The position numbers and the translations under genes are program-made. Positions 49,819 to 55,029 of a stretch of DNA of 64,000 nucleotides are shown piece by piece (position 1 is the first letter of the stretch; each line of letters opens with the position of its first letter). The stretch is from NCBI RefSeq assembly GCF_052102835.1, contig NZ_JBQEIL010000004.1:7003-71002 (forward strand), written 5' to 3'. The notes under the pieces are model-generated. The model had not been told where the DNA came from. It did not search any database and worked only from the letters and a program-made list of their open reading frames with translations. This DNA comes from Vagococcus sp. (GTDB lineage: Bacteria > Bacillota > Bacilli > Lactobacillales > Vagococcaceae).

Positions 49819-50805
49819 ATGAAAATAGTAATTACTGATTATCCTGATTCAATGATGCCTACTCATGATTATGAAAGAGAAATCTTAATAGATGGTTTGG
49901 GTGAATGTGAAATTGTCGTTTATGAGTATGCGGATGAAAAGCGTGAAGAGTTTTTTGAGGTAATTAAAGATGCTGATGCTATTTTGACTGCTTTTACTAA
50001 GATTGATGCAGAAGCAATGGATCATGCCAAAAATTTGAAATTAGTTTCTCTAAATGCAACTGGGTATGATAACGTCGATCTAGTTGAAGCAAACCGAAGA
50101 GGAGTTGGTGTTTGTCCAGTAGGGGAATATTCAACTATAGATGTAGCTGAATTTACAATTACATTAATGTTGACATTGATAAAAAATTTAAAAGCCTATA
50201 TTCAAGATATCGATATCAATCATAAATGGCGTTATGACGTAAAGCCACCAAATGCACGCGTCGAGGATATGACACTAGGTGTTTTTGGATTTGGAAAAAT
50301 AGGTAAAGCTGTAGCAACTAGAGGCAAGGCTTTAGGTATGACTGTCATTACTTGCGATCCTTATGTTGACCAGAAACTAGGTGATGAGTACGGTGTTATA
50401 TTTGTAAGTAAGGAAGAACTTTTAGCAACATCTGATGTAATTACAAATAATATGAATCTAAATGAGAGTAATCAATCATTCTTTAATTTATCAGTTTTTA
50501 AAGAGATGAAAAAAGCACCATTTTTTATTAATATGGGGCGTGGTGCGAGTGTAAATGAATCGGACTTAAAAATAGCTCTAGATAATGGTTTAATAAAAGG
50601 AGCTGGTCTTGATTTACTTGCTGATGAGACACCAGATTTAGAAAACCATCCCTTAGTTGGATTAGATACTGTGATCATAACACCTCATGCAGCTTTTTAT
50701 TCATCAACTTCAATAAAAGAATTGCAGAGATTATCTACTGAGAATATAGTATATTACTTAACGAATCAAAAAGATAAAGTTTTTAAACTTGTTAGCGATA
50801 ATTAA
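49819..50805 (+). CDS. D-isomer-specific 2-hydroxyacid dehydrogenase (CtBP-like)
   Basis: ATGYDNVD, GFGKIG, INMGRG, LDLLADE, TPHAAFYS. Confidence 0.9.
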   Translation: MKIVITDYPDSMMPTHDYEREILIDGLGECEIVVYEYADEKREEFFEVIKDADAILTAFTKIDAEAMDHAKNLKLVSLNATGYDNVDLVEANRRGVGVCPVGEYSTIDVAEFTITLMLTLIKNLKAYIQDIDINHKWRYDVKPPNARVEDMTLGVFGFGKIGKAVATRGKALGMTVITCDPYVDQKLGDEYGVIFVSKEELLATSDVITNNMNLNESNQSFFNLSVFKEMKKAPFFINMGRGASVNESDLKIALDNGLIKGAGLDLLADETPDLENHPLVGLDTVIITPHAAFYSSTSIKELQRLSTENIVYYLTNQKDKVFKLVSDN

Positions 50806-50843
50806 AAAAAGACCGCTCTTCTGTGTGGGAGGAGCGGTCTTTT
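50806..50843. terminator. Bidirectional terminator
   Basis: AAAAGACCGCTC...GAGCGGTCTTTT. Confidence 0.85.
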
Positions 50844-50849
50844 GTGTTT

Positions 50850-51878
50850 TTATAAATAAGCGTTTAATGGATAAGTCGTGAATTCTGTTGTTTCCAGTTT
50901 TTCACAGGTAACAAATCCGTTAGGAGCTTTAAGTAATGATGGAATACGATTGACAACAGTTGCACAAGTATGAGCGACTGTATCTGGTTTTTCTAATGAG
51001 AAAATCATGTCAGGTTCTCCAGTGATTTTCCAATCACACATATCACCATCTGTTGGGCGGTAAACTTTACCAATACACTCTACTTCGAGTTCAGGACCTT
51101 GGTAGGTTTGAATACTGGTGACAGCAGACATTCCCGTAGCATCGCCAGCAGGAATAGTCCGACCAAGCGTTTCAGAGTAGATATCTTCATCTAAAGTTAT
51201 AGCCACATTTTTTTGTGAAATCGACTTGATTGTCCAATTCATTTTAGAACAAATTGCTTCAGCAGCATTCCACATATAAGAAGGTAAGCTTTCTGCTTGT
51301 GCGATGTCACTTTCAAACTTAGCCATTGGATAACCAGCACCGTGAGCTTCAGCTAAGGCTAAGCCATAGTCTTCAACATTATAACTTACTGCACCTTTTA
51401 CTTTAGTTACACCATTCATCCCGGCCATCATAAGTGTTGGCATATTGATCCAATAAATATCTTGCATTCCGCTACCTGTAATCGTGACATTATGTTTTTT
51501 TGCTAGTTTATCTAAATAATTAGTTTCAGCAGGTGATGTATTCCATGGATAGATGGCTTCTTCACAAGTTGTGATAATATTCACATTATTTTTGATGCAA
51601 AGTTCAAAGAAAGGCATCATTTCAGGCATGTAACTAAAGATAGTAACAACAGCAACATCAGCATCTGTTTCATTTAAAACTTTTTCAGCATCATCAGAGA
51701 TAAGTACGCCCATTTTCCGGCCGAGATTAGCGAAATCACCAATATCCGTACCTACTAACGCTGGATTATTATCGATTGCTCCGACAATTTCAGCACCATG
51801 ATCAACTAAATATTTAATCATTACCTCAGCCATTTTTCCACAACCAAATTGAATTACTTTAACTTTGTCTAACTTCAT
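50850..51878 (-). CDS. 2,4-diaminopentanoate dehydrogenase family / native amine dehydrogenase-like oxidoreductase
   Basis: FGCGKM Rossmann motif, CEEAIYPW, TGSGMQDIYW, YNVEDYG, TCATVVNRIP; resembles recalled CfusAmDH/MsmeAmDH sequences. Confidence 0.75.
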   Translation of the reverse strand: MKLDKVKVIQFGCGKMAEVMIKYLVDHGAEIVGAIDNNPALVGTDIGDFANLGRKMGVLISDDAEKVLNETDADVAVVTIFSYMPEMMPFFELCIKNNVNIITTCEEAIYPWNTSPAETNYLDKLAKKHNVTITGSGMQDIYWINMPTLMMAGMNGVTKVKGAVSYNVEDYGLALAEAHGAGYPMAKFESDIAQAESLPSYMWNAAEAICSKMNWTIKSISQKNVAITLDEDIYSETLGRTIPAGDATGMSAVTSIQTYQGPELEVECIGKVYRPTDGDMCDWKITGEPDMIFSLEKPDTVAHTCATVVNRIPSLLKAPNGFVTCEKLETTEFTTYPLNAYL

Positions 51879-51921
51879 AAAAATAACCTCCCAAATTATT
51901 TGATAATCATTTCACAATCAT

Positions 51922-51952
51922 AGTATAATCTCTATAGTAACTATAGAGTCAA
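51922..51952 (-). promoter_or_regulatory. MerR-type promoter of the dehydrogenase gene
   Basis: Minus strand TTGACT, 19-nt spacer, TATACT; dyad CTCTATAGT-A-ACTATAGAG (51930-51948) across the spacer. Confidence 0.85.
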
Positions 51953-51963
51953 GGAGAGTTATC

Positions 51964-52800
51964 ATGAATGAAAAACTAAAAATTGGTGATTTTGCTAAAA
52001 TGAATGATGTATCTGTTCAAACACTGCGTTATTATGAAAAAATCGGTTTATTAAAGCCTTATTTTATTGATTTAGAAACAAATTATCGATATTATCATCT
52101 GCTCCAATCACCAATTATTGATAGTATTCAGTATTTAAAGGAATGTAATTTATCACTGACTGAAATTAAAAGCTTTCTGTCTGAAGAAAAATCATCGCTT
52201 GTTTTACATCAAAAAATGGAAAAAGAACTTCAAACTTTGATTGACGAGCAAGAAAAAATAAGTCAACGAATGCAACGAATTAAAAGTTTTATGGTGAATA
52301 ACCAAACGTACCAGCAAAACTTAAAGAAGACCGCTTTTGAAATAATCAACTTGCCAGAGCGTTATCTTTATCAGTTCGAAATCCCTAAAAATATTTATGA
52401 CTTGAATCCGAATGACTATGAACATTATTTACGTGATTTTAAAGCTCATCTTAATCAAGAAAAGTTACATGTGATTCACTTTAGTCAAGTGGGATCAGTT
52501 ATTCCTCAAGCTCTATTTGAACGAAATGAAATGATTTCAAAACAAATGTTTGTTTTTTGCTCAAGTAAATTGAAACAACTGAATCAAGTTAAAACCTTAC
52601 CAGCTCATTTATACGCAGTAGATTACTGTCATTCATTTGGAGATGAGATGGGAAAAATCAAAGAATTAAAGAAAAAAATTAAAGCCAATGGTTATCATGT
52701 AGCTGGAGATTATTTGTGTGAGGTACTCAGAGAATTACCACAAATTGATCGTTTAGAACGTAATATGTTTATTCGTTTACAAATCCCAATTGAATCTTAG
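51964..52800 (+). CDS. MerR family regulator with BmrR/GyrI-like ligand-binding domain
   Basis: KIGDFAK..VSVQTLRYYEKIGLLKP...NYRYY; 278 aa with C-terminal effector domain. Confidence 0.92.
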   Translation: MNEKLKIGDFAKMNDVSVQTLRYYEKIGLLKPYFIDLETNYRYYHLLQSPIIDSIQYLKECNLSLTEIKSFLSEEKSSLVLHQKMEKELQTLIDEQEKISQRMQRIKSFMVNNQTYQQNLKKTAFEIINLPERYLYQFEIPKNIYDLNPNDYEHYLRDFKAHLNQEKLHVIHFSQVGSVIPQALFERNEMISKQMFVFCSSKLKQLNQVKTLPAHLYAVDYCHSFGDEMGKIKELKKKIKANGYHVAGDYLCEVLRELPQIDRLERNMFIRLQIPIES

Positions 52801-53062: not shown

Positions 53063-54106
53063 ATGAGGAATAAAAAAGTACCATTGCTTTTATTTGGAGT
53101 ATTTCTTTGTTTTTTGTTTTTTTTCATCTTTATCTCAAAAGAATCCATACCATTTAATGCTGAAAAAGAGCATAAAATTGATGATATGTTGGAAAAACAT
53201 CATTTTAAAGGAACTGTTTTAATGGTTCAAAATGGGCAAGTCGTTTTTGAAAAAGCTTATGGTCAAGCAGACCATGAAAGAAAGACAGCGAACACATTAG
53301 AAACCATTTTTCCAATTGCTTCACTTCAAAAAAGAATGACTGCAGTTATTATCGCTCAGTTGATTGCAGAAGGTAAGCTGAGTTATGAGACGAAGTTAGC
53401 TGATTATTGTCCAGAGGTCAGAGGAGCTCAAAAGATAACGATTCGTCAATTGTTAGATCATACATCGGGGTATGTGATGCCGGAAATTGCTCCAGTTAAT
53501 GTTTTGAAAACAGAAGAAGCTCAATATGATTATGCACTACAACTAACGACTGTTTATGAGCCAGGGACGTACCAGTACTCAAATGGCAATTATACTTTTT
53601 TGGCACGGGTGATTCATTTGATTGAAAAAAAGACGTATGCGGATGTTTTAAAAGAAAGAATCATTCAACCACTTGGTTTAAAAAATACTTTTTTATGGGA
53701 TGAAATCCCGAAAAATAAACAAGTACCGGAAGAATATATGTATCTTAATGGTGATTATACTACTCAGAAACGCGTGGCTTCTCCTGCCTTATTTAGTAGT
53801 CTATTAGGAGCTGGAAATGTCTTCTCAAGTGTGAATGATTTGTTGCTTTTTGAAAAGAGTTTGTCAGATAATCAGTTGTTAACACATCAAGAAATGGAAA
53901 TTGTTTTCGACTGGTCTTTTGAACAACCTAAAAAAAAGAAGATGATTCGTGGTAATATTTCAGAAGCGGGTCAATTAGGAGGGTATGATAGTGCTGTTTA
54001 TGGAACACTGGACAATCAAAACTTAGTTTTTTGGTTATCTAATCAAGCACCAGTTGACCAAGAAGGCCAACTGCTTAATATACTTTACGAAATAATGATG
54101 TATTAA
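53063..54106 (+). CDS. Serine hydrolase, beta-lactamase/PBP class C family, membrane-anchored
   Basis: N-terminal hydrophobic anchor; IASLQK (SxxK), LLDHTSG, YQYSN (YxN). Confidence 0.85.
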   Translation: MRNKKVPLLLFGVFLCFLFFFIFISKESIPFNAEKEHKIDDMLEKHHFKGTVLMVQNGQVVFEKAYGQADHERKTANTLETIFPIASLQKRMTAVIIAQLIAEGKLSYETKLADYCPEVRGAQKITIRQLLDHTSGYVMPEIAPVNVLKTEEAQYDYALQLTTVYEPGTYQYSNGNYTFLARVIHLIEKKTYADVLKERIIQPLGLKNTFLWDEIPKNKQVPEEYMYLNGDYTTQKRVASPALFSSLLGAGNVFSSVNDLLLFEKSLSDNQLLTHQEMEIVFDWSFEQPKKKKMIRGNISEAGQLGGYDSAVYGTLDNQNLVFWLSNQAPVDQEGQLLNILYEIMMY

Positions 54107-54123
54107 AAAAGAGGAGAATTGTA

Positions 54124-55029
54124 GTGGGTGCAACGGTTTTTAGTGTGACAAGCGTTTTAATTTTGTTTATGTTAGTGGGTGTTTTTTTACAGTTAAGAGG
54201 GAAGTATACGCCCCAAGTTAATTATTTTTTAGGCTATTTTTTAACCAATATTGCTTTGCCACCTGCCATTATTAATAGTTTTCAGTTACCAAGGACGCTA
54301 GAAACGATAGAGTTAATTAAAACAACAGCATTCTATTCTTTGATAATGATGTTTATAACGTTAGGAATTGGTGTTCTTGTGGCTAAAATATTTAATAAAA
54401 AAGAGAATTTAAAAAGATTATGGATAACGGGAATTACTTTTTCCAATATTCTTTTCATAGGTATTCCGATTGTGGAACAATTATATGGAGAAAAGGGATT
54501 AGTCGTACTCGTTGTTTATAATACGATATCTAGTATTTTCTTATTTACAATTGGTGTGATGATTTTTTCGGAACAACGTCATTTTGATTGGCGAAGAATG
54601 TTGCTTGCGCCAGCTATTTTAGCTGCGTTGATTGGTTTTGGTTTGTTTATGCTTAATATTCAGTTACCACAACCCATTGAATCTTTTAATATCGCTTTAG
54701 GCTCGATGACTGCTCCAATTTCGATGATTATTAATGGAGGACTCTTTGCAAAAAGTTCATTAAAATCGATATTTAAAGATAAAGATAATCTCCAATTTGC
54801 ATTTGCGCGTATGGTAATCATACCTGTCATCTTTGTGAGTGTTTTATCTAAATTCATTACTGAACCGATTATTTTAGGAGTGTTAGTGATGGTTTCAGCA
54901 ATGCCATCTGGAGCAATTAATGCGATTTTTGCAGAACAATACATAGGTGAAGGAGTAAAAGCTTCACAGTATATTACGCTAACAACACTAATCAGTATGG
55001 TGAGTTTACCGTTAATAATGTCCTTTTAA
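54124..55029 (+). CDS. AEC (auxin efflux carrier) family transporter
   Basis: IALPPAI, FSNILFIGIP, SAMPSG motifs; ~10 TMs. Confidence 0.85.
   Translation: MGATVFSVTSVLILFMLVGVFLQLRGKYTPQVNYFLGYFLTNIALPPAIINSFQLPRTLETIELIKTTAFYSLIMMFITLGIGVLVAKIFNKKENLKRLWITGITFSNILFIGIPIVEQLYGEKGLVVLVVYNTISSIFLFTIGVMIFSEQRHFDWRRMLLAPAILAALIGFGLFMLNIQLPQPIESFNIALGSMTAPISMIINGGLFAKSSLKSIFKDKDNLQFAFARMVIIPVIFVSVLSKFITEPIILGVLVMVSAMPSGAINAIFAEQYIGEGVKASQYITLTTLISMVSLPLIMSF

Follow-up and report, generated by a model that had tools for sequence, protein, structure and literature searches.

A stretch of 64,000 nucleotides from the genome of a Vagococcus species (contig NZ_JBQEIL010000004.1, positions 7,003 to 71,002; hereafter, the window) carries two divergent genes separated by 85 bp, which encode a native amine dehydrogenase (AmDH) on the minus strand and a MerR-type regulator on the plus strand. 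The two genes form a self-contained, conserved cassette, and the regulator very probably controls the promoter of the AmDH gene. Elsewhere, orthologues of the same regulator stand before an aldehyde:ferredoxin oxidoreductase (AOR). On balance we favour a reading in which the cassette is an aldehyde-responsive switch of the BmrR type, with the AmDH as an inducible, NADH-dependent sink for aldehydes.

The original prediction for this locus had described a minus-strand promoter composed of TTGACT and TATACT hexamers 19 nt apart, with a 9-bp dyad in the spacer. This promoter is present upstream of the AmDH gene at 51952-51922 and the dyad is perfect (Table 1). The arms of the dyad, CTCTATAGT and ACTATAGAG, occupy positions 51930-51938 and 51940-51948, 1 nt apart, and overlap the final 2 nt of the -35 element. 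The promoter pattern has its sole exact match in the window at this site; allowing one mismatch gives 3 matches, where 0.5 would be expected by chance. The operator sequence is unique in the 2.37-Mb genome even with 3 mismatches permitted, and the same search returned no further regulon members. The -10 boxes of the AmDH and merR promoters overlap back-to-back, and from the geometry of the sequence the start site of merR is expected to fall inside the dyad. A similar arrangement is known from the mer operons of Tn21 and Tn501, where overlapping back-to-back promoters, PmerR and PmerT, share one dyad in a 19-bp spacer, as they do here and at other Lactobacillales loci. By analogy with that operator-promoter, autoregulation of merR is predicted. 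Unlike the Tn21/Tn501 protein, which is a metal sensor, the window regulator is of the GyrI-like small-molecule sensor type.

The gene pair and its promoter are conserved together. Among the 80 AmDH loci closest to that of the window in a species-representative genome collection (58-82% identity to the window AmDH), a full-length MerR orthologue with 33-49% identity lies directly upstream of the AmDH gene in 61. The two genes are divergent in the Lactobacillales and Erysipelothrix and co-directional in Clostridia and Paenibacillus; the Clostridia arrangement thereby differs from the divergent layout of Tn21 and Tn501. Whole-genome searches found the MerR orthologue adjoining the AmDH gene in every one of 12 genomes with an AmDH of 54% identity or higher, whereas each of 6 genomes in which the identity was 45% or lower had no adjacent orthologue. 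A strict TTGACN-19 nt-TAnnnT pattern is located upstream of the AmDH gene in 58 of the 61 loci with MerR, versus 0 of the 19 without it, a recurrence well beyond what chance would give. When 136 homologous sites (99 of them distinct) were compared, the dyad arms were complementary in 82-96% of the distinct sites at four inner arm positions, and the outer arm position co-varied, with C:G in 51 sites and T:A in 48. Such co-variation is expected of an operator bound by a dimer. Control of the AmDH gene by MerR is thus strongly supported by the conserved pairing of the genes, the conserved 19-bp spacer and the co-varying operator. Clustering of all open reading frames in the 80 loci revealed no conserved gene beyond these two, for example one encoding a transporter or a partner in a pathway.

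Several AmDH loci depart from this organization. Six loci without MerR, of Granulicatella, Carnobacteriaceae and Streptococcus metagenome-assembled genome (MAG) origin (L019, L020, L023, L024, L025 and L033) have the AmDH gene directly downstream of an operon resembling ykoF-ykoE-ykoD-ykoC, which encodes an ECF transporter (YkoF, Pfam E = 4e-41) of a type linked to salvage of thiamine and hydroxymethylpyrimidine (HMP). The promoter with the 19-bp spacer is absent from these six loci, and the AmDH there could have other regulatory wiring or another substrate. Three further loci (L055, L057 and L058) belong to Wohlfahrtiimonas and Ignatzschineria, which are fly-associated Gammaproteobacteria; their AmDHs are 66-67% identical to the window protein, which suggests, from sequence similarity, acquisition from Firmicutes by horizontal transfer. 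In L055 and L058, MerR is lacking and the genes preceding AmDH encode an MFS transporter and a carbamate kinase with 41% identity to that of the window. In another genome of the same genus as the window (G012:C1:2122512-2123336), the merR orthologue beside an intact AmDH gene holds one in-frame TAA; the regulator may be pseudogenised, making this a natural 'merR-minus' strain.

The AmDH of the window was compared with structures in the PDB and with profile models. As the original prediction had proposed, it is closest to CfusAmDH (PDB code: 6IAU, E = 3.2e-87 over residues 6-330) and MsmeAmDH (6IAQ, E = 1.7e-74), followed by MATOUAmDH2 (7R09, E = 2.5e-45), the Ord-type enzyme AmDH4 (6G1H, E = 2.6e-22) and several true DapB entries (E about 1e-3). 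The three motifs on which the proposal had been based are present, as CEEAIYPW, YNVEDYG and GSGMQDIYW, the last with two residues rather than one between D and W. The Pfam domains are DapB_N (PF01113) and DAP_DH_C (PF19328), which with the catalytic Glu are common to Ord (2,4-diaminopentanoate dehydrogenase). Identity with Ord was nevertheless rejected: the NCBIfam model NF040740 scores 142 bits against a cut-off of 400, pocket position P9 holds Val164 and not the carboxylate-binding Arg typical of Ord (group G2) and of group G1, and no genes for ornithine fermentation lie nearby. Identity with DapB was likewise rejected, the TIGR00036 score being 30.8 bits against a cut-off of 122 with only the N-terminal Rossmann part aligned. 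The target of the regulator is a native AmDH of the CfusAmDH/MsmeAmDH type, belonging to ASMC group G4, and is neither Ord nor DapB.

The assignment to G4 follows from the active site, whose residues were mapped by alignment onto the published P1-P21 scheme (PMC11164908), leaving out P14, P16 and P17, for which the mapping is uncertain. The catalytic Glu at P3 is Glu106, aligned with E108 of CfusAmDH; P5 is Met138 (Phe140 in CfusAmDH), P8 is Trp143 and P10 is Tyr166. Among 137 relatives, there is no variation at E106, W143, Y166, H179 and W203. Met occupies P5 in 122 of them and Tyr in 15, Tyr occupies P10 in all 137, and P9 holds Val, Ser, Ala, Ile or Thr but not Arg in any. Group G4 is marked by Tyr at P10 (Trp in G3) and by Met or Tyr at P5 (His in G3) (PMC11164908); the window protein carries both marks, as Y166 and M138. 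In fold, in length and at P3, P8 and P10 it resembles the G4 enzymes SgorAmDH, CfusAmDH and MsmeAmDH. Its Met at P5 agrees with the G4 consensus, and its Asp at cofactor position R1 (Asp36) with the NADH-preferring set. Asp at R1 defines an NADH-preferring cluster that includes SgorAmDH, ChatAmDH and IGCAmDH1 (PMC11164908 supplement), and a preference for NADH is accordingly predicted for the window protein. The Streptococcus gordonii homologue (locus L037) is 72% identical to it; SgorAmDH (UniProt A8AV93), which was purified and shown by assay to be a native AmDH (nat-AmDH; PMC11669115), is among the enzymes validated as NADH-preferring (PMC11164908 supplement). NAD(P)H-dependent reductive amination, the in vitro reaction of the relatives SgorAmDH and CfusAmDH, is the predicted activity. 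The gene is single-copy in the genome and has a patchy distribution, with 9 of the 36 genomes in the family and 11 of the 401 sampled from the phylum carrying it.

The regulator was correctly recognised from the outset as a MerR protein of the BmrR type. A winged helix-turn-helix domain at its N-terminus (residues about 1-72; Pfam PF00376 MerR and PF13411 MerR_1) is followed in the AlphaFold2 model (pLDDT 90.5) by a long coiled-coil helix of 42 residues (78-119) and an alpha/beta domain, which corresponds to a divergent GyrI-like sensor domain at residues about 121-278 (52324-52797). By sequence, its best solved relatives are BmrR chains, and a profile built from 25 MerR orthologues aligns with residues 6-276 of BmrR (E = 1e-21). 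Foldseek with the model returned BmrR structures first (E about 1e-14), and then the GyrI-like domains of the BmrR C-domain (1BOW), SbmC (1JYH), CTR107, SAV2435 and Rob. The GyrI-like effector domain is recognised at the fold level alone: the Pfam GyrI-like model misses the window regulator and matches only 2 of 24 aligned regulators. The match to NmlR is weak and N-terminal (E = 1.2e-6). Judged by profile and model, the regulator is BmrR-like over its full length, with a sensor domain that is GyrI-like but divergent.

Comparison with BmrR of Bacillus subtilis (PDB codes: 1EXI, 3Q1M and 7CKQ) reveals the same three-part architecture, the same length of 278 residues and, in the profile alignment, the family-invariant Glu253 falling exactly on Glu253 of BmrR, the buried carboxylate of its drug pocket. 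The promoter on which BmrR acts likewise has a 19-bp spacer with a dyad. The two proteins are only about 17-20% identical, however, and the invariant pocket positions of the window family are mostly polar. Moreover, BmrR activates an efflux pump, whereas the window regulator has a single cytoplasmic redox enzyme as its target. The nearest functional precedent for the role proposed here is provided by AdhR of B. subtilis and NmlR of streptococci and Haemophilus, which are MerR-family activators of aldehyde-detoxifying dehydrogenases. These regulators are about 120-140 residues long, have no GyrI-like domain and carry their sensing Cys in the coiled-coil region. In contrast, the window regulator has a separate ligand-binding domain, and its family targets an AmDH or an AOR rather than AdhA or AdhC.

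The AOR as a second target emerged when the regulator profile was searched across the 401 genomes of the phylum. Three genomes (G144, G155 and G361) encode MerR orthologues with E-values of 1e-91 to 1e-96 and have no AmDH at E 1e-60. In these genomes merR is followed by a promoter and operator of the same type, for instance TTGACT CTATGGTTACCATAGACTT TATACT, behind which lie genes for a 4Fe-4S ferredoxin and an AOR (AFOR_N and AFOR_C, E = 1e-131). The best PDB relatives of the latter are the broad-range AORs 9MQX, 1AOR, 9G7J and 8C0Z, which score well above FOR, WOR5 and BamB. A locus search with a single AOR-linked MerR as query gave 4 close loci only, and querying more widely with the regulator profile yielded 80, distributed over Clostridia, Tissierellales, Spirochaetes, Petrotoga, Sporomusa and Paenibacillus. 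Downstream of merR, 78 of these 80 loci have the strict promoter pattern. The target is an AmDH at 59 loci and an AOR at 17; three others are truncated by the end of a contig, and one holds an orphan regulator with no gene behind the promoter. Of the 77 loci with a determinable target, 76 thus have AmDH or AOR. Within the ortholog group the target is never an efflux pump; pumps occur with paralogs that lack the signature residues of the group.

In a maximum-likelihood tree of 100 regulators, the AOR-linked proteins fall at separate points among the AmDH-linked ones, at least three with good support and as many as five in all, and parsimony on this tree gives four target switches. Two flavours of operator, CTATnnTTACnATAG and TTATAG...TATAAC, are both found with both targets. 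Across 88 orthologues, the sensor residues R133, Y145, E153, S192, E228, Y250, C252, E253 and Q273 are invariant in the AmDH-linked and the AOR-linked sets alike, and R157 and R266 are conserved in 86 and 87 of the 88, respectively. Most of these residues differ in the paralogs located before genes for MATE pumps or giant surface proteins. With the sensor residues constant across both sets, the specificity of the sensor appears, from sequence, to have been maintained while the output enzyme was repeatedly exchanged. The AOR would be a non-homologous alternative to the AmDH in strict anaerobes able to synthesise the pterin cofactor with tungsten or molybdenum.

Among the more distant paralogs are L085, L086, L087 and L090 (genus g88), L088 and L089, which have lost the CE/Glu signature and kept promoters with a 19-bp spacer. 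Those of g88 precede giant (800-1450 residues) surface or autotransporter-like proteins, while L088 and L089 precede a MATE efflux pump. One Tissierellales MAG (OY781471.1) contains two separate MerR-AOR cassettes, L113 and L115, whose operators differ. A small ThiS/MoaD-like protein is encoded after the MerR-controlled AOR in three loci (L083, 2407-2694; L092, 4604-4891; L093, 8036-8323). This gene recalls the maturation genes of the Aromatoleum aor operon; the flavin adenine dinucleotide (FAD) subunit, AorC, is absent.

In BmrR and other MerR proteins (e.g. PDB 1EXI and 7CKQ), a dimer occupies a dyad within an over-long spacer, and binding of the ligand untwists and shortens the DNA. The architecture described above points to ligand-dependent activation by a comparable distortion of the DNA at the AmDH promoter. 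A MerR dimer bound to the 9-bp dyad would lie between the -35 and -10 elements, where the 19-bp spacer is too long for RNA polymerase. Binding of a small molecule in the GyrI-like domain would twist the dimer and shorten the spacer, as with BmrR, turning on the single downstream gene. In the divergent layout the bound dimer would also cover the start of the merR promoter, so that MerR would limit its own transcription. The inducer would be an aldehyde, short-chain or reactive in some other way, or else a compound that equilibrates with one, and the AmDH would remove the aldehyde by reductive amination to a primary amine or by direct reduction to an alcohol, a known side activity.

The case for an aldehyde as inducer rests on the chemistry of the two targets. 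AOR interconverts aldehyde and acid, and AmDH interconverts aldehyde or ketone and amine, so that their reactions share a single metabolite, the aldehyde. Either enzyme alone would be useful only when it consumes the aldehyde, which suggests an aldehyde-responsive switch with the AmDH as its sink. With its pocket residues and operator conserved, this sensor drives AOR elsewhere, making an aldehyde the most likely inducer. The original prediction had named an amine or an aldehyde as the compound concerned, and the AOR targets of the regulator favour the latter. Consistent with the sink are the stand-alone nature of the cassette, its single enzyme and its patchy, accessory distribution. The reported reduction of carbonyls directly to alcohols by nat-AmDHs without ammonia (Fossey-Jouenne et al. 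2023, as cited in PMC11164908) also fits. We give roughly an even chance to the proposition that signal and substrate are both an aldehyde.

Several points weigh against this reading. The aldehyde is deduced solely from the chemistry common to two alternative targets. The conserved buried Glu253 is the cation-binding residue of BmrR, and would be better matched by a protonated amine or an iminium than by an aldehyde, which is neutral. Control by the regulator is not universal, with 19 of the 80 close AmDH loci lacking it and lying in other contexts. In addition, nat-AmDHs need very high ammonia in vitro, which calls amination at cellular ammonium concentrations into question; either amination or plain reduction may operate in the cell.

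The residue Glu253 is also central to a reading in which the regulator is an amine-sensing catabolic switch. A protonated primary amine would bind at Glu253 and the AmDH would work in the oxidative direction (amine and NAD+ to aldehyde or ketone and NH3), serving to gain nitrogen or to clear a toxic amine. The alignment of this residue with Glu253 of BmrR and its invariance in the 88 orthologues are compatible with such a role, as are BmrR structures with small cationic amines (e.g. 3Q5S with acetylcholine) and the reversibility, in principle, of the AmDH reaction. However, the same sensor controls AOR at 17 loci, and G144, G155 and G361 have no AmDH at the threshold used; an amine would be an odd signal for an enzyme whose substrates are aldehydes and acids. 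Oxidation would moreover produce a toxic aldehyde without a sink, for example in streptococci, as neither an amine transporter nor an aldehyde-consuming partner is conserved beside the AmDH. We regard an amine signal as unlikely. Cys252, which precedes Glu253 in an invariant 'CE' motif, could instead make the regulator a general electrophile or redox sensor that reacts with aldehydes (for instance by forming a covalent thiohemiacetal), quinones or oxidants, placing AmDH and AOR in a broad response to carbonyl or electrophile stress and not in one tuned to a single aldehyde. Both enzymes consume carbonyl compounds, and the MerR-family regulators AdhR of B. subtilis and streptococcal NmlR do sense aldehydes through a Cys. 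Against this, Cys252 is also found in 3 of 4 paralogs with unrelated targets, the roughly ten invariant polar residues of the pocket suggest a specific, non-covalent ligand, and the sensor fold is that of reversible small-molecule binders. A disulfide switch between C222 and C252 is weakened as a candidate by the replacement of C222 with Phe in 15 of the 88 orthologues and with Leu in one. We hold the electrophile sensor to be as improbable as the amine switch.

In a multidrug-type response, the regulator would accept a broad range of lipophilic cationic xenobiotics and the AmDH would act on a ketone or amine of xenobiotic origin; such a response would account for the architecture, the length of 278 residues and the buried Glu held in common with BmrR. 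The pocket of BmrR is largely aromatic, however, whereas that of the window regulator is rich in invariant Arg, Glu, Asn and Gln. The known substrates of the enzyme are small carbonyl compounds of fewer than six carbons, and efflux pumps, as noted, occur only with paralogs outside the signature-bearing group. This reading seems very unlikely. Returning to the aldehyde sensor, a broader formulation can be put forward tentatively, with somewhat less than an even chance of holding in full. The BmrR-like clade marked by GDYxCE together with R133, E153, R157, E228 and R266 would be a dedicated aldehyde sensor that has repeatedly swapped its single target between a tungsten-type AOR, in strict anaerobes, and G4 AmDH, in hosts that include aerotolerant Lactobacillales without pterin cofactors. 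The native role of the G4 enzymes would then be inducible detoxification of aldehydes by reductive amination.

The AmDH gene of the window adjoins a deiminase/carbamate-kinase operon, and a possible link between the two had been raised in the original prediction. The 2-hydroxyacid dehydrogenase gene that closes this operon ends at 50805 and is convergent with the AmDH gene, which ends at 50850. The AmDH could conceivably work with the operon by aminating a keto-acid intermediate or using released ammonia. In favour of this are the distance of about 45 bp from the end of the operon and the carbamate kinase gene directly upstream of AmDH in the Wohlfahrtiimonas loci L055 and L058. However, the units are convergent and a terminator separates them; no hydroxyacid dehydrogenase, deiminase, YfcC transporter or carbamate kinase occurs within 5 kb at the remaining 78 AmDH loci. 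The AmDH also lacks the carboxylate-binding Arg at P9. The link was therefore rejected, and we consider cooperation with the operon highly improbable.

Table 1. Features of the merR-AmDH locus (window positions; a point in the strand column denotes no strand).
Feature	Position	Strand	Basis
Stem-loop terminator between the convergent 2-hydroxyacid dehydrogenase and AmDH genes	50807..50843	.	16-pair stem, then T-run
Native amine dehydrogenase gene, 342 aa, G4 group	50850..51878	-	PDB matches, Pfam, pocket residues
Ribosome-binding site GGGAGG of the AmDH gene, 8 nt before ATG	51887..51892	-	Direct sequence reading
merR promoter, TTGATA-18 nt-TATAAT	51900..51929	+	Sigma-70 consensus scan, 11/12 positions
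MerR-type AmDH promoter: -35 TTGACT 51952-51947, 19-nt spacer, -10 TATACT 51927-51922	51922..51952	-	Sequence, pattern search
Putative operator within the spacer: CTCTATAGT-A-ACTATAGAG, a perfect dyad of 9 bp	51930..51948	.	Inverted-repeat search
BmrR-type MerR regulator gene, 278 aa	51964..52800	+	Pfam, profile, AlphaFold2, Foldseek

Native AmDHs are prized as biocatalysts, and published work treats them as such without a physiological role being reported (PMC11164908). The original prediction had called their natural substrates unsettled, in agreement with Elisee et al. (2024), who found no consensual genomic context for groups other than G2 (PMC11164908). The NetSyn survey in that work required a synteny score of at least 3; a two-gene cassette would fall below this threshold, which would explain why no context was seen outside G2. 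Group G4 is the largest of the nat-AmDH groups, with 5652 modelled members (PMC11164908). Both proteins of the cassette are of known families, the AmDH having an assayed G4 homologue at about 72% identity and the regulator being a BmrR-like MerR. A search of the accessible literature returned nothing relevant that links MerR to nat-AmDH or AOR, and the dedicated regulator clade and the repeated exchange of AmDH and AOR appear to be undescribed there.

The link to a regulator and the swapping of its target turn the question of the native role of G4 into a testable hypothesis, with an aldehyde as inducer and a carbonyl sink as the role. If correct, the cassette would represent a new detoxification route yielding biogenic-type amines in streptococci, enterococci and gut Clostridia, with toxic aldehydes being converted to primary amines in oral and gut Firmicutes. 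It would also offer a ready-made, aldehyde-responsive genetic switch, and would indicate to enzyme engineers the natural substrate and hence the selective pressures behind the active site.

Two further genes lie downstream of merR and in the same orientation (53063-55029), encoding a beta-lactamase/penicillin-binding-protein-family protein with a signal or anchor sequence (PF00144) and a transporter of the auxin-efflux-carrier family (PF03547). Neither is conserved beside the cassette in other genomes. Finally, the Pfam-domain count table in supplementary file 1 of PMC11164908 lists one reference AmDH with the MerR helix-turn-helix domain PF13411; this entry may represent a merR-AmDH fusion or a gene-calling merge of a co-directional cassette.

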